A stretch of 64,000 nucleotides of DNA, from contig CAZVGK010000004.1 in the NCBI GenBank assembly GCA_964626665.1, positions 32,001-96,000 of the forward strand, given 5' to 3'. Shown here piece by piece: positions 13,660 through 35,550 of the stretch. The position numbers and the translations under genes were made by a program. The notes under the pieces are model-generated. The model ran no database searches. It saw nothing but the letters and a program-made list of their open reading frames with translations, and was not told the origin of the DNA. Numbering within the stretch: position 1 is the first letter of the stretch; each line of letters opens with the position of its first letter. The stretch comes from an uncultured Gemmatimonadota bacterium (GTDB lineage Bacteria; SM23-81; DAOVCL01).

Positions 13660-16600
13660 ATGTTCAAAAGATGGCTATTGCCTTTAACCCTGCTTGTCTG
13701 GTGGTCTTTGGCTCCTTTGGCCATGGCTTATAACCATCTGGAGATAGTAACCTCTGGTGGGGAGAGCGATGAGACCCAGTCTGTTGGTTTTTCAGTGATA
13801 GTCACTGCCAGAAACCCTGACGGCTCCATTGATGCCGGTGCCTATCCCTTAGTCTCCTTCACCTCATCTGATCTTAATGCCTCCCTTCCCCCGAACAGCT
13901 ATCTTTCCGGTGGTCAGGCAACCTTCAACAACCTGGTGCTAAATACCCCCGGAAACCAGACAATTACGGTCAGTGATGTCTATGACCCAACTGTTTTGGA
14001 GGGAACCCTTCCCCTGAATGTCCACCGCTTCGTTGACCGCTTCGACTTTGACATCCCTCATGGGGCAAAGGATGTAGGGTTTCCCTTCCAGACAACCATT
14101 GTGGCCAAGGACAACACCGGAGCCACTAATACCATCTTCTCCGACAATGTGAGCTTAAGCGCTGCCGTGGGGCGGATAAGCCCCAGTTCTGTCCTGGGCT
14201 CCTCCTTTACCAATGGAGAGACCACCCTGATGGTTACCTTATATGGAACGGATCCCACCACCCATATCAATAGTATAACTTGCACCAACGCCATATCCTA
14301 CCCTGGCCAGTCCGAGCTCCCCTCTGGAACAAGCGAGAACATCACCGTCAACCCCGGTTCTTATAGCACTGTGATTCTCCTCTTTCCCGGGGAGGACCTC
14401 ACCCCCGGCACGGCTCCGGGAAAGAGTGGGGAACCAAACCAACAGGTGGCTGGAGTTCCCTTTCCTCAGGTTGAGGTTAAAGCCGTGGATGAATACTGGA
14501 ATCCGGTCTCCTCCCACCCTTATCCTACTATCTCTTTTGGTTCCACCGATACCCTGGCCACCCTTCCCGCAGCTACCTCGATGACCTCCAACAGCGAGAG
14601 CTTCTCTGGCGTGGTTTTGAAGATCGCGGGAAATCAGACGGTCACCGTTGAGGAGGATATAAACTACAATACCAGTGTAAGCACCATTCCCATCATCCAT
14701 TCTTCGGTAGACCATTTCACCTTCGCCCAAATACCCAGTCCCCAGACGACCATTACCCCCTTCAATGTCTCCATTACCGCCAAAGATGCCTTCGAAAACC
14801 GGGTCTATTCATTCAATTCAGACATCGCCTTAGAGTCCTCTACTGGACCTTATACCTATACCCCCACCTTGGTTACCCTATCAAATGGATTTTGGTCGGG
14901 GTTGGTCCATATAACCAAGAAGGCAAACAATGCCCAACTTAGCTGTGACGATCTTGCCGGTCATACAGGATTGAGCAATAACTTTACCATCAATGCAGGC
15001 CCTTTTAGCGAACTATTGATCGTCCTTCCCGGGGAGACCTATACGCCTGGAATTCCACCTGGCCGCAGCAATCCACCCACTCCTGTGCTTACTGGGGAGA
15101 CGGTCACAGCAACTATCCGAGCAGTGGACCAGTACTGGAATCAGGTGGCCGGGCCCTCGGTCCTGGTTCCCATAAGCATTAGCTCTCCCACAGGATATAT
15201 AGAGTCCTTGGATGATGGGGCTCAGCTCACCCAGTTTGGAATTGGTGATTACCGGGTGATCTTCCGCACCTATCAGGGGCAGAGGATCAGGGCGGTCAAC
15301 GGGTTCAACCCCGACATGGACGATTTGAGCAGTGTGATAATCGTCCACTCCGGACCATACTCTAAGCTTGTCCTGGCCGCCCCCGGAGAATCCCTTGATG
15401 CGGGGACCTTTGAACCAGATGGCAAGTCGGGTTCACCGACCACACAGATGGCCGGGAACAAGTTTCAGATCGAGGTGGCGGTCACCGATAGCTACTGGAA
15501 CCCTATAGAGGATCCACCCCCTTATCCTGTGATAGATTTTGCCACAAATGATCCTCAGGCGACCCTGCCCCCAGGCGGAGAGGCAATGGGGAGCCCGGTG
15601 CAGAGTTATCCGGTGACCTTAGCCACGGTGGGGTTAAATTGGCTAAAAGCCACTGACTCCAATGATTCCGACAAGGAGGATCTGGTCAACATCGAGGTCA
15701 CTGCCGGCCCCTTAGACCACTTTAGATTTAGCCAGATATCATCACCCCAACAGGTGGGGCAGCCCATCCACCAGGTGAAGGTTACCGCCAGGGATGGCTT
15801 TGGCAACCAGGTCCTTAGCTTCAACCAGGAGATCAGCCTCCTCTCCTCCACCGGAGAGGGGACATTTACTCCCCTCAGCATTACCCTGACCAACGGGGAG
15901 TGGACTGGGACCGTGACCATCTATCGGGCGGGAACGGGGGTTGAGCTCTCCTGTGAGGATGGGATGGGACATTCTGGAACGAGCAACCCATTTGATGTTT
16001 TGGCTGCCACATACAGCAAGATTCTCATCACCCTACCTGGGCAGGATTATACTCCAGGGGTGGCCCCAGGAAAGAGGGGATCGGCCACATCCACCACTGC
16101 TGGGGTCTCCATACCGGCCATGGTAAGGGCGGTAGATCAGTACTGGAACCTGGTCCCCGCTCAGCCAACTGTGAACCTCTCTACCAGCGGCTATGCGGTG
16201 ATCCCGGGAAACGACAGCAGGCTAAACCCTGATGGGACGAGGGAATTTCAGCTCCTCTTCCGCACAGCGGGGATAAATTCCGTTATAGCCAAGGATGTGA
16301 ATGACACCCTGATTGCGGATACAGGCGCAATCTCCGTCTCCCCGGCAGATTTTGTCCAGATCCAGCTCCTTGCCTCCGGGGAGACCCCTGATCCGGGCAG
16401 TCCTACGGGCAAGGTCGGCTCTATCCTTCCTCAGACGACAGGTATCATCTTCGACTGTGGGGTCAGGGCGGTGGATGAATACTGGAACCTGGTTCCCACG
16501 ATCAATGGAGAACAAATCAGGCTGTCCTCATCTGACAACTCCCTGAATGACAACAATCCGCCAAACCAGGGGCAGTCCTTTGTCAATGGGGAGATAACCT

Positions 16601-19600
16601 TCAGCATCTATTTGGCCCATACCGGGCTAATCTCTGTCACAGCTACTGACTTAGACGATATGAACAAGACCCAGACGGTGGAGATAAATGTCCATCAGGG
16701 AGCCTATTATGAGTTGATCACCCCGAATACAGTCACCGCCGGGCCACCGGCAAGCTTTCCCATGACCGTGAGGCTTATTGACCCCCAGACCGGGGAGCCG
16801 GTCAATGCCTCCCATGGTTTTTTCCTTATTCCCCTTTTGGCCAACCACGACCCCACAGACGGAACTTTGGGAACCACCAGCGGCATCCTGGATAGTGGGG
16901 TGGTGGTAATTGACCACCAGACCTACGACCAGGTGGAGTCCATCTGCATCAGGGTCTGGGATGACTACAGCAGGGAGACCTTTTCCAATACCATCCGGGT
17001 GGTGGCCGGCGATGTCTTCTATCATATATCAGTTCCGGAGGCGGCCACAGTTGGCCCCCCCAAGACCTTCCCGGTGACCGTTGAGCTGAGGGACGCCCAG
17101 ACCGGAAACCCCATCACCACCGAGGATCGGGAGGTGAAGCTTACTATCTACTCGGCCTCGAGTGGGGAACCAGGAACGGGGATAACTGATGTCACTACGA
17201 TCAACCTGATTCAGGGGCGGGCCTCAATTCAGGAAAGTTATACCAAAGCCGAGGATATATATATCGTGGCTACAGATACCTTAGGGGTGAGGGGAACATC
17301 TTCTGTCTTCCCTGTTGATCCAGATGGCTACAAGAAGCTCCAGCTTATAGCCCCAGGGGAGACTTCCCAGCCGGGCTCCATCTCGGAGAGCGGTAAATCG
17401 GGGATACCTGATCCCCAGAAGGCAGGGGTTCCCTTCACGGTTTTAGTAAGGGCTGTGGATCAATATTGGAATTTGGCCGACACAACCCAATCTGGAAGGA
17501 TCCACCTCAGTTCCAGCGACAACTCCCTGAACGAGGAGAATCCCCCCGACCAGGACCAGCCTTTCGTTAATGGGGAGAGGATATTCAACATATTCCTGAG
17601 CAATGCTGGGTTCGTTGAGGTGACCGCCTCTGACAACTCGGATCCGGCCAAGCTCCCCCAGGTGGTGCCCATTGAGGTGAGGGAGGGCCCTCATTATGAG
17701 ATCACCGTCTCTGACACCGCCCTGGCCGGGCCTCCGGCCACTTTCTTCGTGGTGGTCAAACTGATTGACCCCCAAACCGGGGAGCGTGCCTCCTCCTCCA
17801 ACAGTTTCACTATGACCCCATTTCTGGCCAATCATGACCCGGCTCATGGGGTTCTGGGCAGAACCTCAGCTACCCTGAACGACGGATCGGTAACTATAGT
17901 TGATCAGACCTACAACACCGTAGAGGATATTGTGATCAGGATAGATGATGACTACGGACGTCAAGAATATTCTCATCCCATTAGTATTACCTCCGGTGGG
18001 TTCTACTACCAGATCACCGTTCCCGATTCGGCCACAGTTGGTCCCCCCAGCTCGTTTCCGGTGGATATAACCTTAAGGGATGTAAATACCAATGCCGTTG
18101 CCGTTACCGAGAACAGGGAGCTATCGGTGGTCATCTATTCGGCTGAGACCGGCATTCCAGGGACTGGCTCTGTGGGGGTAACCAGGGTCAACCTTGAAAG
18201 GGGGAAGGCAGACTTCCTTCAGACCTACACCAAGGCCGAAGGGGTCTTCATCAGGGTCTCAGACAGCCTGGGCCTATCCGCGGTGAGCTCCGTCTTTTCC
18301 CTGGCCCCCGATAGCTACAAGAAGCTCCAGTTGGTCGCCCCGGGGGAGGCTGCCGAGCCAGGCTCCATCTCCCCCACAGGAAAGAGCGGCCTCCCCCGGG
18401 TAGAGACATCTGAGGTTCCCTTTGTGGTCACCTGCTTGGCGGTTGATCAGTACTGGAACCTAGTGGATGTCAACAACGGGGTTGTCCATATAACCTCATC
18501 GGACAGCTCCCTGGATGGGACCAACCCTCTGAACCAGGATTCCCCATTTACAAACGGGAGAGTGGACTTCGAAATAGTCCTCCATCGCCAGGGACAGATA
18601 AAGGTTACCGTTGAAGACTCAGTCAACTTAGAGAAGACCCCCCAGTCCGTGGATATCCCGGTCAATGCGGCCACTTATGAGATCACCGTTCCCACCACGG
18701 CAGTGGCCGGTCCACCAGCCACATTCCCCATAACCGTCAAGCTGATCAATCCGGCCAGCGGAGGAGTGGTCGGTGCCTCCCACTCATTCATTATCAACCC
18801 ATTTAAGGCAAATCATGACAGCACAGATGGAAATCTCCTGGTAAAAAGTGGGCTTTTGGAGAACGGGATTTCCGTAATCAACGATCAGGCTTACGACAAG
18901 GCTGAGGCCATCTGTATCAGGGTGAGGGACTACTTAGGGCGGGAGGCCTATTCTCCCCCCATAAACATCCAGGCCGGAGGGGTCTACTATGCGGTGGAGG
19001 CGCCGGATACGGCCACGGCAGGGCCGCCGGAGAGGTTTCCGGTTACGGTCAGGCTCTTAGATGCCAATACGGGCAATCTGGTAACCACTCAGGATAGGAG
19101 AGTTTGGCTTCAGGCTTATTCGGCAAGCTCGGGGTTGCCAGGGGATAGCTTAGGGGTGGGGGTGGCCCAACTGGTTGAGGGGAAGGTTACCATCCAGGAG
19201 ACTTATGCAATTGCCGAGCACATTTATATAAAGGTCTGGGACGATGGAGGGTTAGAGGCGGTCAGTCCCCCATTTCTGATCGTTGCCGGAAGGGAGGCCA
19301 GCCTGGTGGTGACGGCAAATCCGGTTATGGAGGGTGGCCAGACGACTTCCCTGGTGGCCACTCTAACCGATGCACAGGGGAACTACATCTCCAATGCCCG
19401 GTTCTCCTTCTCGGTTCTGGAGGGACCGGGAAGCCTTAATTCGTCCTCCGGGGTTACCAATGCACTGGGGCAGGCATCTGTGGAACTGACGGCCTGGCCG
19501 GGTAGCCAGGGGATCATTAGGGTGGAGGTGAGTTCTGATCTGCTTTATAAGCTAACGGAGATTGAGGTCTTGGGTCCACCCCTCACTGAGATGAGTTTTG

Positions 19601-20145
19601 ATGGAATCCATATAGAACTGGGAGAAATCGTTTACATAAAGCCAACTACCCAGATAATCCTCTCCTCCAGCTCTCAGATCGGCCTGGACAGCATCTATTA
19701 TTCCTTAGACGAGGAAGACTGGCAGGTCTATAGGGAGCCCTTCCCCATCGAGGAGGTGGGATCTCACCTGATCCGCTACTATGGGGTGGACATCCACGGA
19801 AACAGGGAAGAGGTTAGAGTAAGCAAAAGGCTCTCCGTGAGCCAGACCTTGCGAGGGAAGGTCAACAACTATCCCAACCCATTTCGGGCGGGGTGCCAGC
19901 CTACCCATATAGAGTATCTCCTGGAGGAGGCCTCCGATGTGACCCTCACCATATATGATCTTCTGGGGGAGGTCGTCTGGAGAAAAGAGTTTAAGGCGGG
20001 AGACCCGGGGGGAGAGGCTGGAGTGAACCTTTTGGAGTGGTGGGGGAAAAATGGAGCGGGAAAGGTTGTGGGCAATGGCGGATATATCTGCCTGATCAAA
20101 TCCAAACGGGAAGAGCTAAAAAGGAAGATAGCGGTGGTTAAATAG
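13660..20145 (+). CDS. Giant secreted repeat protein (2161 aa): Ig-like repeats, Big-1/OmpL47-like domains, C-terminal NYPNPF sorting-like domain
   Basis: Signal peptide; 7x DxYWN modules; 6x GPPxxF modules; IYYSLD..YYGVDI.GN.E; NNYPNPF...IYDLLG...KIAVVK. Confidence 0.85.
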   Translation: MFKRWLLPLTLLVWWSLAPLAMAYNHLEIVTSGGESDETQSVGFSVIVTARNPDGSIDAGAYPLVSFTSSDLNASLPPNSYLSGGQATFNNLVLNTPGNQTITVSDVYDPTVLEGTLPLNVHRFVDRFDFDIPHGAKDVGFPFQTTIVAKDNTGATNTIFSDNVSLSAAVGRISPSSVLGSSFTNGETTLMVTLYGTDPTTHINSITCTNAISYPGQSELPSGTSENITVNPGSYSTVILLFPGEDLTPGTAPGKSGEPNQQVAGVPFPQVEVKAVDEYWNPVSSHPYPTISFGSTDTLATLPAATSMTSNSESFSGVVLKIAGNQTVTVEEDINYNTSVSTIPIIHSSVDHFTFAQIPSPQTTITPFNVSITAKDAFENRVYSFNSDIALESSTGPYTYTPTLVTLSNGFWSGLVHITKKANNAQLSCDDLAGHTGLSNNFTINAGPFSELLIVLPGETYTPGIPPGRSNPPTPVLTGETVTATIRAVDQYWNQVAGPSVLVPISISSPTGYIESLDDGAQLTQFGIGDYRVIFRTYQGQRIRAVNGFNPDMDDLSSVIIVHSGPYSKLVLAAPGESLDAGTFEPDGKSGSPTTQMAGNKFQIEVAVTDSYWNPIEDPPPYPVIDFATNDPQATLPPGGEAMGSPVQSYPVTLATVGLNWLKATDSNDSDKEDLVNIEVTAGPLDHFRFSQISSPQQVGQPIHQVKVTARDGFGNQVLSFNQEISLLSSTGEGTFTPLSITLTNGEWTGTVTIYRAGTGVELSCEDGMGHSGTSNPFDVLAATYSKILITLPGQDYTPGVAPGKRGSATSTTAGVSIPAMVRAVDQYWNLVPAQPTVNLSTSGYAVIPGNDSRLNPDGTREFQLLFRTAGINSVIAKDVNDTLIADTGAISVSPADFVQIQLLASGETPDPGSPTGKVGSILPQTTGIIFDCGVRAVDEYWNLVPTINGEQIRLSSSDNSLNDNNPPNQGQSFVNGEITFSIYLAHTGLISVTATDLDDMNKTQTVEINVHQGAYYELITPNTVTAGPPASFPMTVRLIDPQTGEPVNASHGFFLIPLLANHDPTDGTLGTTSGILDSGVVVIDHQTYDQVESICIRVWDDYSRETFSNTIRVVAGDVFYHISVPEAATVGPPKTFPVTVELRDAQTGNPITTEDREVKLTIYSASSGEPGTGITDVTTINLIQGRASIQESYTKAEDIYIVATDTLGVRGTSSVFPVDPDGYKKLQLIAPGETSQPGSISESGKSGIPDPQKAGVPFTVLVRAVDQYWNLADTTQSGRIHLSSSDNSLNEENPPDQDQPFVNGERIFNIFLSNAGFVEVTASDNSDPAKLPQVVPIEVREGPHYEITVSDTALAGPPATFFVVVKLIDPQTGERASSSNSFTMTPFLANHDPAHGVLGRTSATLNDGSVTIVDQTYNTVEDIVIRIDDDYGRQEYSHPISITSGGFYYQITVPDSATVGPPSSFPVDITLRDVNTNAVAVTENRELSVVIYSAETGIPGTGSVGVTRVNLERGKADFLQTYTKAEGVFIRVSDSLGLSAVSSVFSLAPDSYKKLQLVAPGEAAEPGSISPTGKSGLPRVETSEVPFVVTCLAVDQYWNLVDVNNGVVHITSSDSSLDGTNPLNQDSPFTNGRVDFEIVLHRQGQIKVTVEDSVNLEKTPQSVDIPVNAATYEITVPTTAVAGPPATFPITVKLINPASGGVVGASHSFIINPFKANHDSTDGNLLVKSGLLENGISVINDQAYDKAEAICIRVRDYLGREAYSPPINIQAGGVYYAVEAPDTATAGPPERFPVTVRLLDANTGNLVTTQDRRVWLQAYSASSGLPGDSLGVGVAQLVEGKVTIQETYAIAEHIYIKVWDDGGLEAVSPPFLIVAGREASLVVTANPVMEGGQTTSLVATLTDAQGNYISNARFSFSVLEGPGSLNSSSGVTNALGQASVELTAWPGSQGIIRVEVSSDLLYKLTEIEVLGPPLTEMSFDGIHIELGEIVYIKPTTQIILSSSSQIGLDSIYYSLDEEDWQVYREPFPIEEVGSHLIRYYGVDIHGNREEVRVSKRLSVSQTLRGKVNNYPNPFRAGCQPTHIEYLLEEASDVTLTIYDLLGEVVWRKEFKAGDPGGEAGVNLLEWWGKNGAGKVVGNGGYICLIKSKREELKRKIAVVK

Positions 20146-20170
20146 TCGAAGTAGAAGCTTAGGAACACGA

Positions 20171-20564
20171 ATGACACGAATAGACGAACCTACACGAATA
20201 GATAAGAAGATTATTCATAAAGAGTTGTCTTTTGCCATTATGGAGGCATCATTTGAGGTGCACAATGCACTTGGTCCTGAGTATTCAGAGGGTATCTATG
20301 AGTCAGCGCTGGTCAAAGAATTCAGAGATCGAGACATCAAATACGAAAGACAAAAACTCATAGAGGTTCGGTGAGAAGATAGGCGAGTATCGATTAGATA
20401 TGGTTATTGAGGGCAAGATAATTCTAGAGTTTAAAGTTGTCTCCGAGTTAAATAAGATCTTTGAAGCGCGGATTCTTTCATATCTAAAGGCCACTGGGAT
20501 GAAGTTAGGGATATTGCTCGACTCTGGAAGCAAGAAGGTAGAATACAAAAGAATAGTAGATTAG
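20171..20564 (+). pseudogene. GxxExxY (PD-(D/E)XK-like) protein, frameshifted near 20370
   Basis: FEVHNALGPEYSEGIYE..L, then in another frame GEKIGEYRLDMVIEGKIILEFK..YLKATG.KLG.L. Confidence 0.85.
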
Positions 20565-20673
20565 GATTCGTGCTATTTGCATATTCGTGGGATTCGTGTT
20601 CAAGGCCTTATTTATATAAACCCTAAATTAACCGTATAAAGCCGTTTGGACGGCCTAAACCAAATAGGTGAAA

Positions 20674-21924
20674 ATGAAAAGATACTTAGCATTTGTTCTT
20701 TTTGGAGTTTTGCTTGGTGCCCCCCAGGTCAGAGGAGGGTCGGAGGATGGTGGGCTCCCTGGTGGCTACCTAAGGTGGGGGGCAAGCGCCCGTTGCCTGG
20801 CCTTAGGCGGGGCCTTTGTGGGGTTGGCAGATGATGCAGCAGCCGCCTACTGGAATCCGGCGGGGCTGGAGCAGATCCCATCCACCCAGCTTCTGGTTAT
20901 GCATGCCATTCTGTTCGAGCAAACAACCTACGATCTTTTGACCATAATCCAGCCTACCAGGAAGCTGGGGACATTTGGCTTTGGTGGAGTATGGCTCTCC
21001 TCCGGCTCCTTTGAGCGGACCGATGAGCAGAACCGCCCCCAGGGCCACTTCTCAGATCTGCAGAGTTCTCTCCTTTTCTCCTATGCAAAGGAGTTGGGGA
21101 GGATTTCGGCAGGCTTAAACTTCAAGCTGGTGGGACACAAGCTTGCGGGATATTCCGGATCGGGCACTGGAATGGACCTCTCCCTCACCTATCGCCCCTT
21201 GAGGAACCTGAACCTTGGGTTGAGCCTGCAGAACCTCCTCCAACCCAAGCTCACTCTGATCGAAGAGGAGGAGAGCTTTCCCAGATGCATCAGGGTCGGC
21301 CAGGCGCTCAAGTTCCTCAACCGCAGGCTCTGCTTAGTTACAGATTTAGAAAAGGTTGAGGGACAGGAGCTGCAGGTGCACACCGGGATGGAATATTGGG
21401 TTTTTCCCTCCCTGGCCCTGAGAGGTGGATATGACGGCCAGGTGAGGGAGTATTCCCTGGGAGGTGGGTTCAGGTTCTCCCGCTACCAGGTTGATTACTC
21501 GATGCTAACTCATGAGCTGGGTATCTCCCATCGCTTCTCCTTTATCTGGAGGTTTGGTGTCCCCTACGGGGTGGAATTGACTGTCTCTCCCGGACTTTTC
21601 TCTCCCACCGGTAAAGTTGACCGGGTTAAACTAAGGATAAAGACCTGGGATAAATACCCCATGGAGAATTGGAGACTGACCATTGAAGATCAAAAGGGTA
21701 ATCAGGTGAAAAGCTACCAGGGGGATGAGAACCCGCCTGAGGAGATAGTCTGGGAAGGTGAGGATGAGCTGAACAGAAGCGTGGGGGATGGGGTATACAA
21801 GGTGAAGATTACGGTCAGGGACGGGTTTGGGGATACCTGGGAGGACTCCGATGAGGTGAGGGTGGTCAACTTCCAGGAGGAGAGGGAGGTTCCCATCAAG
21901 ATAAAGGTGAACAGAGGGGATTAG
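20674..21924 (+). CDS. PorV/PorQ-like outer-membrane beta-barrel with C-terminal FlgD-like Ig domain
   Basis: GASAR.LALGGAF..LADDA.A.YWNPAGL N-terminal motif, alternating beta strands, LRGGY, DYS..H.LG..HRFS; then FSP.G...W.L.I.D..G..V...W.G.D....DG.Y. Confidence 0.8.
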   Translation: MKRYLAFVLFGVLLGAPQVRGGSEDGGLPGGYLRWGASARCLALGGAFVGLADDAAAAYWNPAGLEQIPSTQLLVMHAILFEQTTYDLLTIIQPTRKLGTFGFGGVWLSSGSFERTDEQNRPQGHFSDLQSSLLFSYAKELGRISAGLNFKLVGHKLAGYSGSGTGMDLSLTYRPLRNLNLGLSLQNLLQPKLTLIEEEESFPRCIRVGQALKFLNRRLCLVTDLEKVEGQELQVHTGMEYWVFPSLALRGGYDGQVREYSLGGGFRFSRYQVDYSMLTHELGISHRFSFIWRFGVPYGVELTVSPGLFSPTGKVDRVKLRIKTWDKYPMENWRLTIEDQKGNQVKSYQGDENPPEEIVWEGEDELNRSVGDGVYKVKITVRDGFGDTWEDSDEVRVVNFQEEREVPIKIKVNRGD

Positions 21925-21926
21925 AG

Positions 21927-24917: not shown

Positions 24918-24955
24918 GTGAGCTAATGACAAGATCCAATCTGAGGGAGGATAGG

Positions 24956-25570
24956 ATGAAGAGGCCTGGTATAATTGTCCTGCCGATTCTATTTTTGAGT
25001 ATTCTGCTGGGATGTAGTCGAGAGGATGCAGTCTCCATCCCAGATGTATCGCCGAAGATGTTGTTGCCCCAATTGGGTGGGTTGGGATTCAAACTCCAGG
25101 AGGCCAATGAGATAGATCATTCTGCATTGTTTAATCTGGCCAAAGATGTGGCCAGTCAGTTTGGCATTCCCGTCTCCCAGCGAGATTTGGATAAGATAGA
25201 TTTCCCCCGGCGAATGGCCATAGGAAAATATAGAGATGAGGCGGGGACGATTACTATAAAGATCTCTCAATTTGAGGATGGAACTACTGCTTATAAGGAG
25301 CTGAAGTCCCACTTAGATAAAGTTAAGGAGCTGGAACGTCTTCTCCGAAGAAGCAAGAGCGTCATAGGTGGAAAACCTGAGAGAATAAGGGTAAACGGTC
25401 AGAAGGCTTATTGGCTTGAATATCTGATGAGACCCAGTAATGTTGGGCTGAGGTATGAATTCCGGCTTATCTGGGCAAATGGGCCTTATCTCTTTGAGGT
25501 TAACTCTTATGGAGAAGAGCCTCGGATGATTGCAGAGGCCGTAGAGATAGCGGGGGAGATTGGACTTTGA
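24956..25570 (+). CDS. Hypothetical lipoprotein
   Basis: MKRPGIIVLPILFLSILLGC lipobox; GGAGG SD. Confidence 0.75.
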   Translation: MKRPGIIVLPILFLSILLGCSREDAVSIPDVSPKMLLPQLGGLGFKLQEANEIDHSALFNLAKDVASQFGIPVSQRDLDKIDFPRRMAIGKYRDEAGTITIKISQFEDGTTAYKELKSHLDKVKELERLLRRSKSVIGGKPERIRVNGQKAYWLEYLMRPSNVGLRYEFRLIWANGPYLFEVNSYGEEPRMIAEAVEIAGEIGL

Positions 25571-26150
25571 ACTCACGGCTAATATATTGACACTCAACCT
25601 CACAATTGTTCACTACTGAGCCCCACAGTGCGGCAAAGCCGTAAAAAAACAAGGGCCACAGATTACACTGACTCTTAGGAACACGAATGACATGAATAGA
25701 TCCAGAATCGAGGTGGCAGAACCCCGATTCTGCCACCATCCTTCTGCCGTCAGAATCGGGGTTCTGACGGCTCGGGAATTTCTATTTTCCGTTTTTCTAC
25801 CCGGCTTTAACCGGTTTGGAATGCTGTGACTCCTGTCACAGCATGCGTCAACAGGAGTTACCACACTCCATAGTGACCTGCACTAAAGTGCGGTGGAAGT
25901 TGGAGATTGCTTCGGCTTGCCGCCTCGCTGCCGCTGGGGCAAGCCTCGCAATGACAGACAGGGGGGACCCGTCATTGCGAGGAGCACTTCGCTATTGCTC
26001 AGCACAGGCTCCGCGACGAAGCAATTTTGTTCTACCCGGTTTTAGCTGAAGGTTTCCCCAGAGGGTGGCAGAAGCCCTCTTCTGCTACCAAAAAGAGAAA
26101 GATCAAAAAACGGTAACAATTCACGGGATCAGTCTCCAGGGATCAGGGAG
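25570..26150. repeat. Mosaic of short palindromic (REP-like) modules
   Basis: GAGGTGGCAGAA..TTCTGCCACC, GCCGTCAGAA..TTCTGACGGC, TTCTACCCGGCTTTA, GCACTAAAGTGCGG, GAGATTGCTTCG..CTCGCAATGAC, TGCTGTGAC..GTCACAGCA. Confidence 0.85.
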
Positions 26151-26232
26151 TCAGATGCTCTTTCATTCTTCATTTTACATTCGAAGCTTCCCTGACCTCG
26201 TGGGCTGTTAAACCAAACGAAAGGAGAGGAAG

Positions 26233-26871
26233 ATGTTTGAAGGAGTTCAAATTCTTGATCTCTTCAGGGAAAGCCCCATAATGTCCGTTCTCCTGGTCTG
26301 TTCCATTATTGCCTTCACCTTTGCTATAGAGAGGTGGTGGTTTTTCAGGAGGAACAGGATCAATGTGCCGAAGTTTATGGAAAGGGCAAAGGAATTTCTC
26401 AGGAGAAACGAGCTGGATCATCTCTTTGGCTACTGTGAGACCAAGAGGGGACCAGTTCCCAGGATGATCCACACAGCTTTGAGCAACTTGAGCCTATCTA
26501 AGGAGGAGATGGAGCAACTCTTGGATACGACAAAGGAGAAGGAGGAGGTGAAATTCGAGAAAAATCTCTCCATTTTAGGGACCCTGAGCAACATCGCCCC
26601 TCTTCTTGGGCTCTTCGGCACGGTCTTGGGGATTATCAGGGCCTTTCGCGATATAGCGGTTACCGGTTCAGGGGGCTCGGCAGTGGTGGCTATGGGTGTA
26701 GCCGAGGCACTTCTTACCACGGCAGCCGGGATAATTATCGCTGTCGTCTCCACCATCTTTTACAACTATTTTATGCGCCGCATCAGGGTGATGGATGTGG
26801 AGACAGAAGATGTGAGAGTAAACCTCTGGAGGATGTTGAGGGAGGCAAACGGCAACAATGTTCAAAGATAG
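26233..26871 (+). CDS. exbB: MotA/TolQ/ExbB proton-channel protein
   Basis: LGT..NIAPLLGLFGTV.GII.AF...VA.GVAEAL.TTAAG. Confidence 0.93.
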   Translation: MFEGVQILDLFRESPIMSVLLVCSIIAFTFAIERWWFFRRNRINVPKFMERAKEFLRRNELDHLFGYCETKRGPVPRMIHTALSNLSLSKEEMEQLLDTTKEKEEVKFEKNLSILGTLSNIAPLLGLFGTVLGIIRAFRDIAVTGSGGSAVVAMGVAEALLTTAAGIIIAVVSTIFYNYFMRRIRVMDVETEDVRVNLWRMLREANGNNVQR

Positions 26872-27283
26872 GTCCATCGTTTCCATAAACATCACCCCTT
26901 TGGCCGACGTGACCATGACTCTGATCGTTATCTTCCTCATCACTATGCCCTACATTATGTGGTCGGGGATTAAAGTCAACTCCACCAGGGCAGTGAAAGA
27001 CAAAAGGATCGTTAAGGCAGCAAAGGAGCCTGAGCCCATAGTGCTTGTTCTCACGGCCAAGGAGGTCTATTTAAACAGGGAACGGGTAAAGAAAAAGAGG
27101 GATCTCGAGCTCCTTTTACGAGGGCTTCTCAAGGAGAGGGCTGACAAACAGGTCATCATCGTCCCAGATGGGGATGTTCTCTTAGGAAGGGTGGTGGAGG
27201 TTCTGGACATAGCTAAACAGAGTGGGGCAGCAAAACTGGCCCTCTTAAAGAGAAGAGAAGGGAGGTTAGCTCTGAGCCAATGA
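26858..27283 (+). CDS. exbD: ExbD/TolR family protein 1
   Basis: INITPLADV (TM Asp present); D.DV..G.VV.VLD.AK.SG. Confidence 0.9.
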   Translation: MFKDRSIVSINITPLADVTMTLIVIFLITMPYIMWSGIKVNSTRAVKDKRIVKAAKEPEPIVLVLTAKEVYLNRERVKKKRDLELLLRGLLKERADKQVIIVPDGDVLLGRVVEVLDIAKQSGAAKLALLKRREGRLALSQ

Positions 27284-27684
27284 GGGAAGACAAGATTAGG
27301 TCACATATAGATGTATCGCCGGTGATAAATGTCTCCCTGGTGATTGTCCTAACGCTGATGATCATCTCCCCCTTTCTCGGTGAATCCAAGGTAAAGGTAA
27401 AACTACCCCAGGCTACGACAAGTGAGGTAAAAGACCAGGAGAAAGTGGAGATCACCTACTCGGTGGAGGGAGAGCTCGCCGTGGGGGAGGAGATTGTGAC
27501 CTTAGCTCAACTGCCCCATGTGCTTAAAGAGAGGTTTCAGACCAATCCAGGACAGATGGCGGTGATAAAGGCAGACGAGAGAGTCAGATATGAGAAGGTG
27601 GAGAAGATCATAGCTATAGCCAGGGAGTGCGGCGCAGAAAGAATAGCAATAGCCACCGAGCAGAAAAAGGGGAAGGGAAAGTGA
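27280..27684 (+). CDS. exbD: ExbD/TolR family protein 2 (TM Asp replaced by Asn)
   Basis: IDVSPVINVSLV...V.LPQA...IKAD....YE.V......G...IAIAT. Confidence 0.88.
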   Translation: MREDKIRSHIDVSPVINVSLVIVLTLMIISPFLGESKVKVKLPQATTSEVKDQEKVEITYSVEGELAVGEEIVTLAQLPHVLKERFQTNPGQMAVIKADERVRYEKVEKIIAIARECGAERIAIATEQKKGKGK

Positions 27685-28853
27685 ACATTGGCTCTACAAA
27701 AAAGGAGACCAGAAGGTCCTTTTTTATCTCAGTAACTTTGCATCTGGCTGCCCTCCTTCTTTTGATCTTTAATGGGGGGACCAAACAGAGATCTATGGGT
27801 TCAAAGCTTACCGAGGTATCCTTCATAGAGAGGTATGGGCCGGATGTGGCCAGCAAGATAGTGAGAAGGAGGATCCCCATCCGCACTCACAGCCTATTGA
27901 AGAAGATATTTCCCTCCCAGAAGAAGGGAGATAAGTCCGCCGGGGTGAGAGAAAGGTCACGCCCCTCGGGTCACCAGGGGAGAAGCAAGCCAATCGGTAA
28001 AAGCATAATTGCCTCCCACACCAAAAAGGTGGAGGATCTAATAGATGTTGACCAGGATGTGAGGGTAAGCAGTCAACCAAGGAAGAGATCGACAATTGCC
28101 CAGGGGAAACTGGTGGGAAGAAAAGCGGAGGTTAATCTTAGAGACCTCCCATTTGAGGTAGAGGAGGATCTGCCGAAGCTAGAGAGCGCAGATATAGAGA
28201 TGGCAGTGAAGATTCCGGTAGGCGGATTAGAGTCAGGAAACAAGCGCTTTGTGGGGGGGATATTGACCAAAGGGGAAAAGGGTCTGGAGGAGCCGGTTAT
28301 CTTTCCTCTGGCAAGTTCAGGGGATCTGGTCGACATTTCAGATGGTGGCGGAGGTGGGGGACGGGGTACTCTTTTGAACTATGGGGAAACGGGTTCTGCG
28401 GGAGGGGGTGGAAATCCTACGGGAAGGAGAGGAAATTCGGAAGTGATAATCCCAAAAGCCAAGAGATTGAAGATGCTGAGCGAAGAGGTTGATGCCCAGG
28501 TAGTTGTTAAATCACAGAGGGAAGAGAGAGGAGGAAACCTCAAGTCTGGCCGAGGGGTGACGATGAGACTGTCTGGACCACTTTCGGGCAGAAAGATCTT
28601 AAGGTCCTTTGCCCCAGAGTATCCGGAATGGGCGAGGAGGAAGGGGATAGAGGGAAGAGTAGATCTCCACCTAACGGTGAATCCGAATGGGTTTGTCAAG
28701 GATAATGTCTGGGTGGAAAGAACCTCCGGACAAACTGGCCTTGACCGGGTGGCCATTGATGCCGTAAAGAGATGGGTATTTGCCCCTCTGCCTTCGGACG
28801 TGGCTCAAATAGAGCAGTGGGGAATAATTACCATCTTCTTCAGGTTGGAATAA
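27681..28853 (+). CDS. tonB: TonB-family energy transducer
   Basis: N-terminal TM with SVTLH (SxxxH), long charged/Gly-rich linker, C-terminal P.YPEWAR..GIEG.V...V...G.V...SG...LD..A..AV..W.F.P. Confidence 0.88.
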   Translation: MNIGSTKKETRRSFFISVTLHLAALLLLIFNGGTKQRSMGSKLTEVSFIERYGPDVASKIVRRRIPIRTHSLLKKIFPSQKKGDKSAGVRERSRPSGHQGRSKPIGKSIIASHTKKVEDLIDVDQDVRVSSQPRKRSTIAQGKLVGRKAEVNLRDLPFEVEEDLPKLESADIEMAVKIPVGGLESGNKRFVGGILTKGEKGLEEPVIFPLASSGDLVDISDGGGGGGRGTLLNYGETGSAGGGGNPTGRRGNSEVIIPKAKRLKMLSEEVDAQVVVKSQREERGGNLKSGRGVTMRLSGPLSGRKILRSFAPEYPEWARRKGIEGRVDLHLTVNPNGFVKDNVWVERTSGQTGLDRVAIDAVKRWVFAPLPSDVAQIEQWGIITIFFRLE

Positions 28854-29151
28854 ATATCAAGTCCACCACGGACTAGCACAGCGCGGAAAAGCCGCAACCA
28901 AACAATTCACCGCAAAGTCGCAAAGGACGCAAAGCCTACCACGGAACCTCACGGATAAACAATAGCCACAGATTACACAGATTTCACTGATAATGAAAAA
29001 GATACTTGAGATTTCAGGCGTTCACCTGGTATATACCGCAATTTACATTCAAACCTTTGTTTTCTCTGCGCCTACTTTGCGAGCTTTGCGGTTAAAAAAC
29101 TTTACCCAAAAAACAAGATCTTGCAAAATTGTAGTTAAGGGGGAAAATAAA

Positions 29152-30054
29152 ATGCGAAATTTACTCTCTTATCTTATCTCGCTTTTCTTTATTTTTTTCT
29201 CTGTGGCTCCCAATTGGGCCGAAGAGGGAACGGGTGATGTCTCCCTCCCGGATGTGGTGGTGAAAGCCAAGAGCAAGGAGAAAACAAAGATAGAGAAGGC
29301 TGAATCCCCTCTCTCGGTGGAGACCTACATCATAGATGAGGCCAAATCCCCTCTCGATGCCCAGATTTTGGAGATATCCCCGGTGCAGAGTGTTGAGGTC
29401 TACCTAAAGGACATCCCCCCTCTAACCACTGAACAGACTATTCACCCCTGGTTGCCCCCCATAGTAGCTCAACCAGTGGTGGTCTTCTTCCCTCAGGAAA
29501 AGGAAGGGATGATCGAATGGGAGCTGGTGATCACCGATTATCAGGGGGAGGAGGTAAAGAAGTTCAACGGCAAGGGCAGGCCTCCAGATAGGATAGAGTG
29601 GGATGGGGTAGACCGCAATTACCGAACCCTAAAGGTAGGGTTCCCCTATTCCTATGTATATACCGCAGTTGATGTGGGGACCAACTCCCATACCTATGTA
29701 GGGGAGCCTTTCAAGGTAAACGCATTTAAGTATCCCAGAGAGCACGACCTTGTAGTGGACATCGTCAACGCCAAGCTCTTTGGGGAAGAGGGCCTTAATT
29801 TAAGCAGAGATGGCAGCTTCCTTATGGGGAAAGTCGCCGATCTGGCCAGATCTTATCCCAACTCCCCAATTTCGGTCACAGTCTATAGCCAGGGCGCCTC
29901 CCTGGCCCAGAAGAAGGCAGATGTGCTGGCTGATTATCTCTCCCAGGACCTGATCATCTCCCCGGAAGGGATTAAGAGGGTGGGCAAGAAGCCAACTGGC
30001 CCCGGCATCGATCCTGGCGGCTATACGCAGATCGTCATCTCCCATGCCAGGTAA
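29152..30054 (+). CDS. Secreted hypothetical protein with FlgD-like Ig domain and possible degenerate OmpA-like C-terminus
   Basis: Signal peptide; WELVITDYQG.EVK.F.G.G.PP..IEWDG.D; LA.KKA..LA.YL......I...G. Confidence 0.65.
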   Translation: MRNLLSYLISLFFIFFSVAPNWAEEGTGDVSLPDVVVKAKSKEKTKIEKAESPLSVETYIIDEAKSPLDAQILEISPVQSVEVYLKDIPPLTTEQTIHPWLPPIVAQPVVVFFPQEKEGMIEWELVITDYQGEEVKKFNGKGRPPDRIEWDGVDRNYRTLKVGFPYSYVYTAVDVGTNSHTYVGEPFKVNAFKYPREHDLVVDIVNAKLFGEEGLNLSRDGSFLMGKVADLARSYPNSPISVTVYSQGASLAQKKADVLADYLSQDLIISPEGIKRVGKKPTGPGIDPGGYTQIVISHAR

Positions 30055-30443
30055 AGACTCAACTCTTAGTTATATTCTCCTTGCTTGTTGAGGATGTTAT
30101 CATCCTCAACAGAGGTTCCTTCTGTCATTGCGAGCCCCGTTAGATATCAATGACGTTTCGCTGAACTCCGAGATTGGTAGAAATTATCTAACGGGGCGAG
30201 CGAAGCGAAGCAATCTCATAGGTGTTCAACGGAGGCTTATTGGATTCTTGAGGGATGATAACATCCCTCAAGAGCCGGGCGACAAAAGTTTTTGTGCTCG
30301 ATTTCATATCGGGCGGAAAGAGACGCCCCATCTAAAATGGGGCGCTACCGTTTATCATCGTAAGGAAAGGAGGTTTTGAATGTAACAAGCAAAGAGATGT
30401 TTTTTTGTCCAATAACTAACCCATAGAAAGAAGAGGAGGCACG

Positions 30444-31331
30444 ATGAAGAGGTTACCCTTGTTTCTTTCTCTAATAGTCCTTTTTGCCCTGACGGGCTGC
30501 AGTAAGAAGAGTACAAATTCTGAGCAAACAGATGAGGGAACCATCCGGGAGTTTATCTTTGACTCGGACTGGTTTAAACTCACTAACCACTTTGAGGGTG
30601 AAGCGGTCAGCGACTCTGGGGATACGAGCACAACGGCGGGCAAAGTCCTCTGTGACACCCTCACCGTACTCTGGGGAAGGAAGATCACCGATCATCCTGA
30701 TCCCCAGGTGACCATCGAGATCACGGGAGATTCGGCCTTCGTCTCCTGGACGATAAACACAGTGGGCTGGTTTCACATTATCAAATGGGTATCATCAGAT
30801 AGTAGTCATTGGGTGCACATCAAGAAGCCCCTGAGCGAGACGGCCAATCTTTATGCCATATTCAAGAGAAGGGGTGAGGTCAATCTTCCCCATCGAGGAT
30901 GGGAGTTGAACAAGATCTCCGGGGCTGAGGGAACATCGGACTCGGTGTGCACGGTAGAGATTCTAAGCATTAATATCCAAAGCAGTAGCTATGATACCAC
31001 CATCACCAATCCCCTGGAGCTGTTTGACATAACAGATGTGCTCACCTTTGAGACCGGAGAGGAGGTCAAAATTACGGTGGAGACCACCGGTGAGCCCGCC
31101 AAGCTCTTCCTTCATGTCTTCACCCACCTCTGGCCCTGGCATTTTAGGATACCCTTTCAAAAAGAGGAGGGTGGAACCTTTATCGGCACCTGGAAGGTGC
31201 AGAGGATACCGGCAGTCAAGTTCGCCGTCTTTGATCTGCTGCGACACGAGACCATCTACGACGACAGCTACCCCTACGACTCCAACGGCTGGCTCTTCCC
31301 TTACTTGGTAAAATCAACCGTGAGCAACTAA
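30444..31331 (+). CDS. Hypothetical lipoprotein
   Basis: LFALTGC lipobox; AGGAGG SD. Confidence 0.8.
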   Translation: MKRLPLFLSLIVLFALTGCSKKSTNSEQTDEGTIREFIFDSDWFKLTNHFEGEAVSDSGDTSTTAGKVLCDTLTVLWGRKITDHPDPQVTIEITGDSAFVSWTINTVGWFHIIKWVSSDSSHWVHIKKPLSETANLYAIFKRRGEVNLPHRGWELNKISGAEGTSDSVCTVEILSINIQSSSYDTTITNPLELFDITDVLTFETGEEVKITVETTGEPAKLFLHVFTHLWPWHFRIPFQKEEGGTFIGTWKVQRIPAVKFAVFDLLRHETIYDDSYPYDSNGWLFPYLVKSTVSN

Positions 31332-31364
31332 TCTTGCTCATTCAGGATTTTCTCATCCTGAACA

Positions 31365-31396
31365 AGGGAGGGCCGGGTAGCCCCGGCCCTCCCTTT
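31365..31396 (+). terminator. Rho-independent terminator
   Basis: AGGGAGGGCCGGG-loop-CCCGGCCCTCCCT followed by T's. Confidence 0.75.
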
Positions 31397-31750
31397 ATGT
31401 GCGGATTTCGGTCAGGATCAAAGAGCCAAAGGAGGTGTTTGACCTGATTCCGAACAGGGTTGGTTTAAAAAGGTTACTAGGATTACCTCCAATGGTTAAG
31501 TTCTCCTCCAATTGGCAGTTAGCTGAAGAGTAAAGTTGCCTCCTTCTGGTTTTTTGGTATAAAAATTGCAAATAGTTAAAACAGTTTTCCACGGAATCTC
31601 ACGGAAAAAAGCAATTAAGGATTGAGAACTAAAAATGAAATTTATGCTGGCTATTCCCGATCCTTGAAGACTAATCCCTGTTTTTCTGTGCAAACCCGTG
31701 GTTGTATGTGGTTAGCTATTAAAAGAAAACCAGATCCTCTCAAAAAACCC

Positions 31751-31779
31751 TTGACAGAGGGAAAAGGATTTAATAATAT
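31751..31779 (+). promoter_or_regulatory. sigma70-type promoter
   Basis: TTGACA-17-TAATAT, 16 nt before ATG 31796. Confidence 0.65.
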
Positions 31780-31795
31780 CCTCTCAATTTGAGCG

Positions 31796-33826
31796 ATGAG
31801 AAAACGATGGTGCAGTTTCGGCGTTCTCTTGGGAGGAATTATCCTTTGGGGGGCTCAGGGGGCATTTTCTCTTCATAACCTTCTTTTAGACGACCAGAAG
31901 GTTGATACGGTCTCAGTGGGCCAACCATTTCTCCTCTCCTTTGATTTAGAGAGGATGGGGGGCTTAGTGGGAGCGGAAATATGGATGGATCTAAATAGGG
32001 ACCAGCGCATAGAACCGGGAAAGGATTTCTTGGTGACATCAGGCAAGGGAATGTTTAAAGACGGTGGCCCAGATGATCAGGACAGCCTACAGGATGGTTC
32101 CTTTAGGCAGATGATCAGGAGGAACTGGCCTTTTCCGATTGGCTTTATCTTCCGGGCCTGGGAGAATGGAGTAGGCGATTCGGCATATCTTCTTCAGACC
32201 CCAGTTAGTTCTCGGTACTCGATCTCCGGTATGGTGGTTAACCCCTTGGAGAAGGAGAAGTTGGTGGTCTATGCCTCCCTGGGAATGGGGAAGCCACTAG
32301 CCGAAGAGGTTTCCTATGCGGCCTTCACTGACCAGAATGGTGATTACTGGATATGGGTTCCAGAGAGCCTGGGGGTGCGGAATTGGTTGGTGGGAAGCCG
32401 AGATATAATGGGGGTAGCCCCTGGTTATATCCCCCCTGCCCCCCTTTCAGTTTTGGTGGATGGGGAGATCACCGGGGTGAACCTTGCTTACCAGGAGGCC
32501 ACAGCATGGATCCAGGGGAGGGTTATGGCCCAGGATGGGAAACCAATCTCCCAGGTGAGGGTCAGCGCCAGAGGAGAGGAGAAGAGGTTGAACCCCGCAA
32601 CCCTCAGCGATTCCTTGGGAGATTACCTATTAGGTGTTAAAGGTGGCAGATGGGTTATAGGTCCTGATGCAGGTGACCTCATTCCAAGCTATCTGGCCCT
32701 CCAGCCCCGCAGGATCTGGATTGACCAGGGCGACACATCCTTGCTGGATCTGGTCTGTTTTAAAGCTAACAGCACTATCTCTGGCACGGTCTATACAAAC
32801 CGAGCAAATCCATTGGGGATAGAGGTGGAGGGATGGTGTGACTTTGGCTGGACGCGTACTACCATCGATACAGCAGGGACTTACTCCCTGCGGGTAGCCG
32901 ATTTAGTTGGTGGTTATAGCTTAAGGGCAATGCCCCCGCAGGGCTACTATGTAGAGGAAAGGCAGCTCGATGGGATCCTGGCGGGAGAACAGAGGGCAAA
33001 TTTTCATCTCCGGCAAGCAAAGGCTTCTTTTCAGGGATCGGTCTACAACCAAAGAGGAGAGGGGATCTTGGAGGCCAAGGTCCTTACCTGGGGAAAAGGT
33101 GGTTCCTTTAGCACCCGGACAGACCAGAGAGGACAATATAGGATATGGCTTCCTGCAGGGACTTACATCCTGCAAGCCCAAAAGGATGGTTATCATAGCG
33201 GGACCCTTCAGGATGTGCTGCTGAGAGATTCAGTTGTCACCGAAAATTTCTGGCTGAAAGCCCTTTCTGGCGTTGTATCCGGCCATATCTACGGCACCGA
33301 TGATACCCCCTTGCGCTGGGCATGGACCACCGCATATGATTCCCTCCCTGAGGATAACTTCTCTGTGAGCACGGACTGGAGTGGCTTCTATCGGCTGAGC
33401 GTCCCTTTTGCCCCCCTCTCCCTCACTGCCACCGCCGCCGGATATGGGGAACAGCGGGAGGAGGGAATAACTCTCACTCCCTCTCGTCCGGATACAGAGG
33501 TTGATTTCCACCTTCCACCATCCGGGGTAACCGAGGAACTGAAAAGGTTCCTCCCCCCCCTTCTCTTTCCTAATCCCTTTAGCCAGAGGACAAATATCCG
33601 CTTTCTCCTTAGGGGGAAGGGGGAAAGGAAAGTCAGGGTAGGTGTTTATAATCTCCAAGGGGAGAGAATTAAGCTCATTTTTGCCGGGCAACTTCCCCCG
33701 GGGCCTTATCAGTTCTCCTGGAGGAGTAGAGATGAGGAAGGGGAGGAAGCCAAAAGTGGCTTATACTTTTTGAGGTTAGATGTGGGGGATGAGGAAGAGA
33801 TAAAAAAAATGTTTCTTATCCGTTAA
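31796..33826 (+). CDS. Secreted protein with carboxypeptidase-regulatory-like repeats and C-terminal sorting-like domain
   Basis: Signal peptide; repeated I.G.V....G.P...V......TD..G.Y; FPNPF...YNLQG...SGLYF.RL....KKMFLIR. Confidence 0.8.
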   Translation: MRKRWCSFGVLLGGIILWGAQGAFSLHNLLLDDQKVDTVSVGQPFLLSFDLERMGGLVGAEIWMDLNRDQRIEPGKDFLVTSGKGMFKDGGPDDQDSLQDGSFRQMIRRNWPFPIGFIFRAWENGVGDSAYLLQTPVSSRYSISGMVVNPLEKEKLVVYASLGMGKPLAEEVSYAAFTDQNGDYWIWVPESLGVRNWLVGSRDIMGVAPGYIPPAPLSVLVDGEITGVNLAYQEATAWIQGRVMAQDGKPISQVRVSARGEEKRLNPATLSDSLGDYLLGVKGGRWVIGPDAGDLIPSYLALQPRRIWIDQGDTSLLDLVCFKANSTISGTVYTNRANPLGIEVEGWCDFGWTRTTIDTAGTYSLRVADLVGGYSLRAMPPQGYYVEERQLDGILAGEQRANFHLRQAKASFQGSVYNQRGEGILEAKVLTWGKGGSFSTRTDQRGQYRIWLPAGTYILQAQKDGYHSGTLQDVLLRDSVVTENFWLKALSGVVSGHIYGTDDTPLRWAWTTAYDSLPEDNFSVSTDWSGFYRLSVPFAPLSLTATAAGYGEQREEGITLTPSRPDTEVDFHLPPSGVTEELKRFLPPLLFPNPFSQRTNIRFLLRGKGERKVRVGVYNLQGERIKLIFAGQLPPGPYQFSWRSRDEEGEEAKSGLYFLRLDVGDEEEIKKMFLIR

Positions 33827-33892: not shown

Positions 33893-34945
33893 ATGGCCAT
33901 CAGTTTGAGAAAGAAATCGGTTATCGGATTGGACATAGGTGCTTATTCCCTCAAGTTAGCTGAGGTAACGGGAACGAGGGAGAAGCTGATCCTCTCCAAA
34001 TGGGGAATGAGGGAGCTTCCTCCCGAGGCCATAGTAGCGGGGGAGTTCAGGGATAGGGACCTGGTCCTCTTACAGCTTCAGAACTTGATCGACCAGTGCA
34101 ATGTGAAGACCAAGGATGTGGTCTTTTCCATTTCTGGCCATGGCGTGATCACCAGCAGGCTGATAATGGATTATAAAAGCGGTGAGGAGGCCGAGCAGGC
34201 CATTCTCTTTGAGGCCGAACAAAGAAGCCCGTTTGATACCGAGGATGTAACCCTGGATTATAACATAGTCTGGGTGGATGAGGACAAGAGCAAGATGGTG
34301 GTGGTCATCGTTGCCGCGCGCAACGAGATCTTGAACAACTATCTTGAGCTTTTGGGTGATGCTGGGCTCAATCCGGTGATTATAGATGTGGATGCCTTTG
34401 CCCTCCTCAATGCCTACGAGGTGAACTACCAGGTAGATGCCGATCGCATATTGGCCTTGGTGAATATCGGGTTTGACAGCACAAATATAACCTTTATCAA
34501 GGATGGGGTCTACCACTCGATGAGGGATCTGGCCTCCGGGGGAAGGATGTTCTTTGAGTCCATTGGCAAGGAGTTAAGTCTTAACCCTGATCTCACTGAG
34601 AAGGTGCTGCGGGGGGAAGAGGTGGAGTCTGTGGACTCTGATATGTTGAAAGCCCTCATTGCCAGCACCGGTGATGAGCTGGCAGTGGATATAGAGGTGG
34701 CTTTCTCCTACTTCGAATCTGCGTCTAAGGCAGAGGGAATCGATTGGATAGTCCTGAGCGGTGGGGGGGCACTCATCCCCTATCTGCCAGAGTACCTCCA
34801 AGAGAAGCTCTCCATTCCAGTAGAGATCTTCAACCCCCTGCGGAGCATAAAGTTCGATGCCGCCCAGTTTCCTGGCCTGCAGGCGGAAAAGATGGCTCCT
34901 TTAATGGCTGTGCCCATAGGATTGGCCTGTAGAAAGGTCCTTTAG
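33893..34945 (+). CDS. pilM: Type IV pilus assembly protein PilM
   Basis: IGLDIG..S.K, EAEQ..PF, IDVD.FAL.N, VNIG...T, LSGGGA, NPL, IGLA.R. Confidence 0.95.
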   Translation: MAISLRKKSVIGLDIGAYSLKLAEVTGTREKLILSKWGMRELPPEAIVAGEFRDRDLVLLQLQNLIDQCNVKTKDVVFSISGHGVITSRLIMDYKSGEEAEQAILFEAEQRSPFDTEDVTLDYNIVWVDEDKSKMVVVIVAARNEILNNYLELLGDAGLNPVIIDVDAFALLNAYEVNYQVDADRILALVNIGFDSTNITFIKDGVYHSMRDLASGGRMFFESIGKELSLNPDLTEKVLRGEEVESVDSDMLKALIASTGDELAVDIEVAFSYFESASKAEGIDWIVLSGGGALIPYLPEYLQEKLSIPVEIFNPLRSIKFDAAQFPGLQAEKMAPLMAVPIGLACRKVL

Positions 34946-34946
34946 G

Positions 34947-35546: not shown

Positions 35547-35550
35547 AGCT

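Follow-up and report, generated by a model that had tools for sequence, protein, structure and literature searches.

Results

A conserved gene cassette with its own Exb/Ton-type motor

We analysed a 64,000-nucleotide stretch (the window) of contig CAZVGK010000004.1 from an uncultured Gemmatimonadota bacterium (assembly GCA_964626665.1, here G000; 99.65% complete at 3.17 Mb and one of 7 genomes in its phylum), in which eleven co-oriented open reading frames (ORFs) had been annotated as a candidate TonB/ExbBD-powered export or surface-assembly system resembling type IX secretion (T9SS). Eight of the eleven genes are a conserved cassette, encoding a giant secreted protein, a PorV-family outer-membrane barrel, a tetratricopeptide repeat (TPR) protein, ExbB, two ExbD proteins, a TonB-like transducer and a protein that we call TBO (Table 1). 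The cassette is a real, conserved and apparently undescribed variant of the Ton/Tol/Agl kind of motor. We think it somewhat probable that it acts as an accessory proton-driven machine, in which TonB pulls TBO so that one dedicated pair of carrier and adhesin is extracted, held or repositioned.

The initial annotation had named conservation of the gene order as a check, and the order is shared far more widely than chance would allow, by genomes in which GldM was not detected in a search that lacked a positive control. G006, from another family, keeps the order giant-barrel-TPR-exbB-exbD-exbD-tonB-TBO (23-44% identity) and has neither the lipoproteins nor the second gene with a C-terminal domain (CTD) seen in the window. 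In a different phylum, that of G007, all eight genes stand in order in 19 of 20 loci examined (out of 74 matches, long contigs being favoured), and the remaining locus ends at a contig end; one of the 19 has a frameshifted giant, one an insertion and one exbD2 and tonB in a single frame. Twelve loci examined out of 44 matches in Elusimicrobiota comprise three with all eight genes, six with the last six only, one with an added FlgD-repeat/OmpA gene, one that is rearranged with a small cargo and one that differs. Six further genomes gave two loci with all eight genes, two with six (one ending at a contig end) and two on short contigs.

Profile matches to TBO were obtained in at least 69 of 101 genomes of G007's phylum, at least 30 of 151 Elusimicrobiota (26 full-length) and at least 9 of 201 genomes of a broad sample (8 full-length); these counts are lower bounds, since 11-23 candidates per genome were scored. 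ExbB served as the query of a DNA-pattern scan because TBO alignments are too variable, and 17 loci were found, of which 15 have the cassette arrangement, Elusimicrobiota being the main source. No cassette was present at eight ExbB loci without TBO. The cassette was not found in G001 (same genus, 97% complete) nor in G003-G005. In same-genus G002 a second cassette of the short-giant type (C141) occurs besides the orthologue of the window's cassette. We found no description of the cassette in searches of openly available full texts, and the available portion of a survey of force transducers (PMC12204202) makes no mention of PorV.

The motor proteins

ExbB (PF01618), both ExbD proteins (PF02472), the TonB C-terminal domain (PF03544) and the TPR repeats all scored above cut-off, and the parts of a Ton system are present, namely ExbB, ExbD and a TonB with the SxxxH helix and TonB_C. 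In a tree of ExbB, whose rows were picked by similarity and whose outgroup is small, a 99/97 branch separates 47 cassette sequences from 13 others. In line with the initial inference, the cassette motor is a clade of its own, and a candidate TonB partner, TBO, is encoded in the locus. The aspartate of ExbD1 is kept in all 43 rows analysed. At the position of the essential aspartate, the 44 ExbD2 rows have Asp (30), Asn (13) or Ser (1), and the Asn rows, the window's own included, all belong to the long-giant subclade. Contigs from three DNA sequencing runs span the cassette genes and show no variant in exbD2. In Escherichia coli ExbD, the D25N change is inactivating (10.1101/2022.09.26.509584).

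One ExbB with two ExbD proteins matches by family the layout of AglR + AglQ + AglS, and the initial annotation had inferred an Agl-like motor. The cassette may accordingly be read as an Agl-Glt-like motor for gliding or surface crawling, driving the giant along the cell: the Myxococcus core complex (PMC3169522, PMC11761067) likewise combines one ExbB/TolQ, two ExbD/TolR, a TonB-like transducer, a TPR scaffold, a barrel and an adhesin, and the cargo is a pure Ig (immunoglobulin-like) stalk. The kinship failed on family scores, however, with GltC at 28 against a cut-off of 450 and the AgmX/PglI tail at 24.5 against 40. Further, the TonB has no cytoplasmic FHA domain, the cassette has no cytoplasmic platform genes and no GltC/GltG-family score, its PorV-type barrel, CTD cargo and TonB-box/OmpA protein set it apart from Agl-Glt, and G000 also encodes flagellar and type IV pilus genes. 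We consider this reading quite unlikely.

An ordinary spare Ton system for nutrient receptors, merely lying beside T9SS genes, is hardly credible and was rejected. Nine TonB-dependent barrels are encoded elsewhere in G000, none of them beside the cassette motor, and could in principle be its clients; however, two further ExbBD-TonB clusters exist in the genome, no receptor gene occupies a cassette position in the loci read, and the linkage of the motor to the TPR and TBO genes is fixed across phyla. An exbB-exbD-tonB cluster at C2:95686-97448 holds the closest paralogue of the cassette TonB. A 1004-aa paralogue of the TPR protein (C3:2584-7463) adjoins a 537-aa protein that combines a TonB-box-like motif with a C-terminus of outer-membrane type and gave no family match. 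The C3 pair and the C2 cluster may be a sister machine with a housekeeping role and a candidate for the general energiser.

TBO as candidate target of TonB

The Ig/OmpA-like character annotated for TBO agrees with its AlphaFold model (pLDDT 83.9, the linker modelled at low confidence), whose top Foldseek matches are OmpA/MotB-like domains (E 2e-6). TBO conserves the motif L-x-[DE]-V-x-[VI]-x-[GA], and a profile of this motif gave two of the nine TonB-dependent receptors 13.4 and 13.6 bits, compared with 9.4 for the top scorer among 121 CTD proteins. Complex prediction of TonB_C with TBO gave scores of 0.39, 0.27 and 0.19, with a median below the 0.32 mark, on 40-row alignments. TBO has neither lipobox nor barrel, so that an outer-membrane partner would be needed.

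The giant protein and the barrel

Residues 25-897 of the giant (the first 873 mature residues) were modelled as an all-beta chain of tandem beta-sandwich domains (pLDDT 88.7). Among its Foldseek matches there was no catalytic fold, and many Ig-chain proteins were retrieved at TM 0.12-0.19 with no single homologue; an atlas search gave low recognition and no named family. The CTD annotated on the giant missed the curated cut-offs and stood as a distinct subtype by profile: a profile of the cassette CTD scored the giant, itself in the profile, at 132, one other protein at 94 and the next at 59. This subtype occurs in two of the 132 CTD proteins of G000, both encoded directly upstream of their own barrel, and the remaining 130 carry a different CTD. 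The other one is a 3218-aa protein (C29:15926-27658) whose gene precedes that of a PorV-family barrel with a fused TPR tail; this pair has no motor genes next to it.

The barrel belongs to the PorV/PorQ family (NF033709, 125 bits against a cut-off of 90), scored below the PorV equivalog (NF033710, 37.5 against 250) and matched solved PorV weakly (E 0.15). Its FlgD-like tail, which we infer to be periplasmic, is homologous to the Ig domain of TBO (HHalign 98.6%), and in some Elusimicrobiota barrel, FlgD-like repeats and OmpA are fused in a single chain. The barrel tree repeats the main ExbB subclades and leaves the tailed barrels unresolved as one group. G000 has 12 PorV-like barrels, and in six cases a CTD gene immediately precedes the barrel gene. 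In keeping with the PorV/CTD recognition module first proposed, the cassette barrel and the giant resemble a dedicated carrier-cargo pair.

The repeat module of the giant also occurs in open frames of 6,024, 14,374 and 12,044 aa in Elusimicrobiota (G010:C1, ~1950-1968 kb; G099:C18; G151:C8) whose only cassette genes are the six of the core; the G010 protein carries the cassette CTD subtype at its end.

Type IX secretion genes elsewhere in the genome

A family scan of the 34 proteins of the window found no TonB-dependent receptor, tolB, pal, gld or sprA, as annotated. Independence from SprA did not hold: G000 encodes a SprA/Sov translocon at C18:15937-21696 (TIGR04189, 746 bits against a cut-off of 200), and SprA is present in all cassette genomes checked. 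A complete canonical T9SS, which might have accounted for all CTD proteins, was not found, with the reservation that the GldM search had no positive control. GldM (TIGR03517) was not detected in 1, 5, 201 or 41 genomes, and its absence is not proven, since no control matched among a Parabacteroides record, the 201-genome sample and 41 genomes of G366's phylum. GldK was not found either, the single FGE-sulfatase (PF03781) match of G000 having no gldKLMN-like neighbours; GldL and GldN were not searched. The PF03781 search worked in three controls and gave no match in G009 and G010, and no gldK locus was seen among 60 of 381 plasmid FGE-domain matches. Against SprE/PorW the cassette TPR protein, which has no lipobox, scored 145.7 with a cut-off of 250, the rest of the genome not being scanned for SprE. 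No Pal-like protein is among the three OmpA-domain matches of G000, and TolB was searched for in the window only.

SprA-like genes are common beyond Bacteroidota. One is present in 140 of 151 Elusimicrobiota, in single copy and also in genomes of 1-1.5 Mb, and in 74 of 201 genomes of the broad sample, in which the uncontrolled search found no GldM.

These data bear on whether phyla without GldLM rely on the cassette to energise type IX secretion in general. The 74 sampled SprA genomes with GldM found in none (again without a positive control) and the presence of SprA in cassette genomes would suit this idea. All eight broad-sample genomes with full-length TBO have SprA, against 74 of 201 overall (Fisher p 2.6e-4, with kin counted as independent); the 26 Elusimicrobiota with full-length TBO all have it too, which is uninformative given the background of 140/151. 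SprA outnumbers the cassette, however, in this phylum (7/7 against 3 genomes), in Elusimicrobiota (140/151 against 26 with full-length TBO) and in G007's phylum (101/101 against 69/101 by TBO profile), and the other 130 CTD proteins of G000 carry a different CTD. Since no cassette was found in most SprA genomes, same-genus G001 included, it is an accessory and not a general T9SS engine, and we rejected that role as very unlikely.

Organisation of the locus

All eleven ORFs lie where they were annotated (Table 1), and two starts had to be corrected: that of tonB moved to GTG 27681 (390 aa), overlapping the exbD2 stop, and that of TBO to ATG 29152 (300 aa), its former first 53 codons being repeated intergenic DNA. 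The tight coupling described for these genes was borne out, with 2 bp between porV and TPR, 8 bp between TPR and lipoprotein, and overlaps throughout exbB, exbD1, exbD2 and tonB. The gaps 20145-20668, 25570-26233 and 28853-29152 consist of short repeats, each matched up to ~150 times across the genome, and one contains a broken GxxExxY-type nuclease gene; in G002 the giant-barrel gap is 32 bp. Promoter and terminator scans gave counts near shuffle level (13 against 11.5; 21 against 18.1).

Table 1. Features of the cassette locus (window coordinates)
Feature	Position	Strand	Description
Giant secreted protein, cassette gene 1, 2161 aa	13660..20145	+	Signal peptide, tandem Ig-like chain, Big_1-like domain, CTD of 'RKIAVVK' subtype; presumed stalk/adhesin cargo
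Broken GxxExxY-type (PD-(D/E)XK) gene and repeats	20197..20564	+	Inserted between giant and barrel; outside the machine
PorV/PorQ-family outer-membrane barrel, gene 2	20668..21924	+	NF033709; C-terminal FlgD-like tail; presumed dedicated carrier
TPR protein, gene 3, 996 aa	21927..24917	+	Signal peptide, no lipobox; presumed periplasmic scaffold; invariant core
Lipoprotein, no known family	24926..25570	+	Accessory; seen only in the cassettes of the window and of same-genus G002
ExbB/TolQ-type motor subunit, gene 4	26233..26871	+	PF01618; cassette-specific clade
ExbD1, gene 5	26858..27283	+	Proton-carrying Asp kept
ExbD2, gene 6	27280..27684	+	Asn replaces essential Asp
TonB-like transducer, gene 7, 390 aa	27681..28853	+	N-terminal helix with SxxxH, long linker, TonB_C
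TBO, gene 8, 300 aa	29152..30054	+	Signal peptide, TonB-box-like motif, linker, FlgD-like Ig domain, divergent OmpA-fold; proposed TonB target
Second lipoprotein	30444..31331	+	Paralogue elsewhere in genome; not conserved in cassette
676-aa protein	31796..33826	+	Carboxypeptidase-regulatory-like repeats, ordinary type A CTD; not conserved in cassette

The two lipoproteins and the 676-aa CTD protein, initially counted as parts of the system, were rejected as machine parts, not being conserved in the cassette; in other loci exbB follows the TPR gene directly at the position orthologous to that of the first lipoprotein. Immediately 3' on the same strand lies a pilM-pilN-pilO-pilP-pilQ type IV pilus operon (33893-38352) with a promoter-like site at 33833, which is not adjacent to the cassette in other genomes. 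At 42452-48526 (-) lies the gene for a 2024-aa protein with LVIVD repeats and an ordinary type A CTD. Flagellar genes (flgD, flgE, motAB and the fliL-R region) are located at C1:142000-156000.

Discussion

In its working the cassette would resemble a cargo-shuttle-anchor module of T9SS, combined with a motor laid out as in Agl-Glt (PMC3169522, PMC11761067); by the features examined it falls outside the canonical T9SS energy chain, Tol-Pal and Agl-Glt. As in SprB-SprF of Bacteroidota and the type B CTD-PorP-PorE triads (PMC12618676), a large adhesin-like cargo lies directly upstream of its own barrel; TPR and OmpA-fold domains are likewise encoded in the operon, with SprA elsewhere. It differs from them in its PorV/PorQ barrel with FlgD-like tail in place of PorP/SprF, in a CTD that is FlgD-like and not type B, in TPR and OmpA parts placed on two non-lipoprotein chains without WD40, and in an operon that includes its own ExbB-ExbD-ExbD-TonB motor. 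Searches for type B CTD and PorP gave no match, and PorE reached 62 of 600, on the TPR part only. With the GldLM-GldKN hub-SprE chain (PMC10994853) the cassette would share a proton-driven 5:2-type motor and a TPR protein positioned to pull a carrier-cargo pair, whereas its motor is of the Exb/Ton type, its TPR protein is below the SprE cut-off, it has a single cargo, it is optional, GldK was not found and GldM was not found in the uncontrolled search. The motor families are those of Ton, Tol-Pal and the TPR-tolQ-tolR-tolR-vWA operons, the last of which also hold a TPR gene with paired heterologous tolR/exbD genes (PMC12204202); unlike these, the locus has no receptor, TolB, Pal or vWA, and the proposed target is a soluble periplasmic protein.

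We propose that the giant, which has a signal peptide, crosses the inner membrane via Sec and the outer membrane via the SprA translocon encoded elsewhere, and that its CTD binds the adjacently encoded barrel, by analogy with T9SS carrier-cargo pairs. ExbB with the ExbD1/ExbD2 pair would energise the cassette TonB, which would grip the TonB-box-like motif of TBO rather than a nutrient receptor. TBO, braced on the cell wall through its OmpA-fold and held with the TPR protein, may transmit the pull together with the latter to the periplasmic FlgD-like tail of the barrel. The stroke could then extract the carrier-cargo pair from SprA and/or hold, release or reposition the pair on the surface, and the cassette would be a local stand-in, for a single cargo, for GldLM and the GldKN hub of Bacteroidota. 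Family identities, folds, synteny and distribution are observed; every contact, and the function, are inferred. To our knowledge, the only energy source described for pulling the loaded carrier off SprA is GldLM. In T9SS, energy is required to detach the carrier with its cargo from SprA (PMC10994853). Where a shuttle gene directly follows a cargo gene, that shuttle serves its own cargo specifically, in some cases with PorE as a possible wall anchor (PMC12618676).

Several observations weigh against this proposal. The invariant core is six genes, often without barrel or giant: both are absent beside the core in six of the 12 Elusimicrobiota loci and in G269, the FlgD-tailed barrel was not found in G010, G099, G119 and G269, which have the six-gene core, and a giant homologue was not found in G119 and G269. 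The motor can thus exist without this carrier, and the T9SS link may be secondary. ExbD2 bears the change that inactivates E. coli ExbD (10.1101/2022.09.26.509584), the giant CTD falls just below its cut-offs (FlgD_ig 26.7 against 27; TIGR04183 18.7 against 23), seven of the nine receptors of G000 do not stand out with the TBO-motif profile, and the co-occurrence statistic for SprA treats kin as independent. PF00691 misses the OmpA domain of TBO, so that wall binding is unsure.

The same six-gene core could instead be a Tol-Pal-like envelope machine, in which TonB pulls the TBO box to switch a cell-wall tether, TBO combining TolB-box and Pal in one chain and the barrel-giant pair being a passenger in some lineages. 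The many Elusimicrobiota cores without barrel or giant, the OmpA fold of TBO, the resemblance of the TPR protein to CpoB/YbgF repeats and the lack of a Pal-like lipoprotein among the three OmpA matches of G000 all fit. However, the cassette is optional, being missing from the G001 (97% complete) and G003-G005 assemblies as searched, TBO has no lipobox or barrel of its own to reach the outer membrane, and barrel and giant track the motor subclades. We give this alternative a minor chance and retain the pulling of a dedicated carrier-adhesin pair as the preferred reading.

On the most far-reaching reading, the cassette would represent a second, GldLM-independent way of powering the type IX translocon in several uncultured phyla: the pulling stroke of TonB would reach a PorV-type carrier by way of a soluble TonB-box/OmpA protein and a TPR scaffold, and a giant adhesin would thereby be extracted and moved, with a heterodimeric 5:2 motor having a single proton-carrying Asp in this subclade. 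We hold this wider claim to be less likely than not. The cassette is a defined candidate link from motor to carrier, and SprA-like genes are widespread where GldM was not found (a search without positive control). With it the Ton/Tol/Agl motor family would gain a new output, namely a soluble TonB-box target in place of a receptor or TolB, and the natural Asp-to-Asn exchange in ExbD2 bears on whether a 5:2 motor needs two proton sites.

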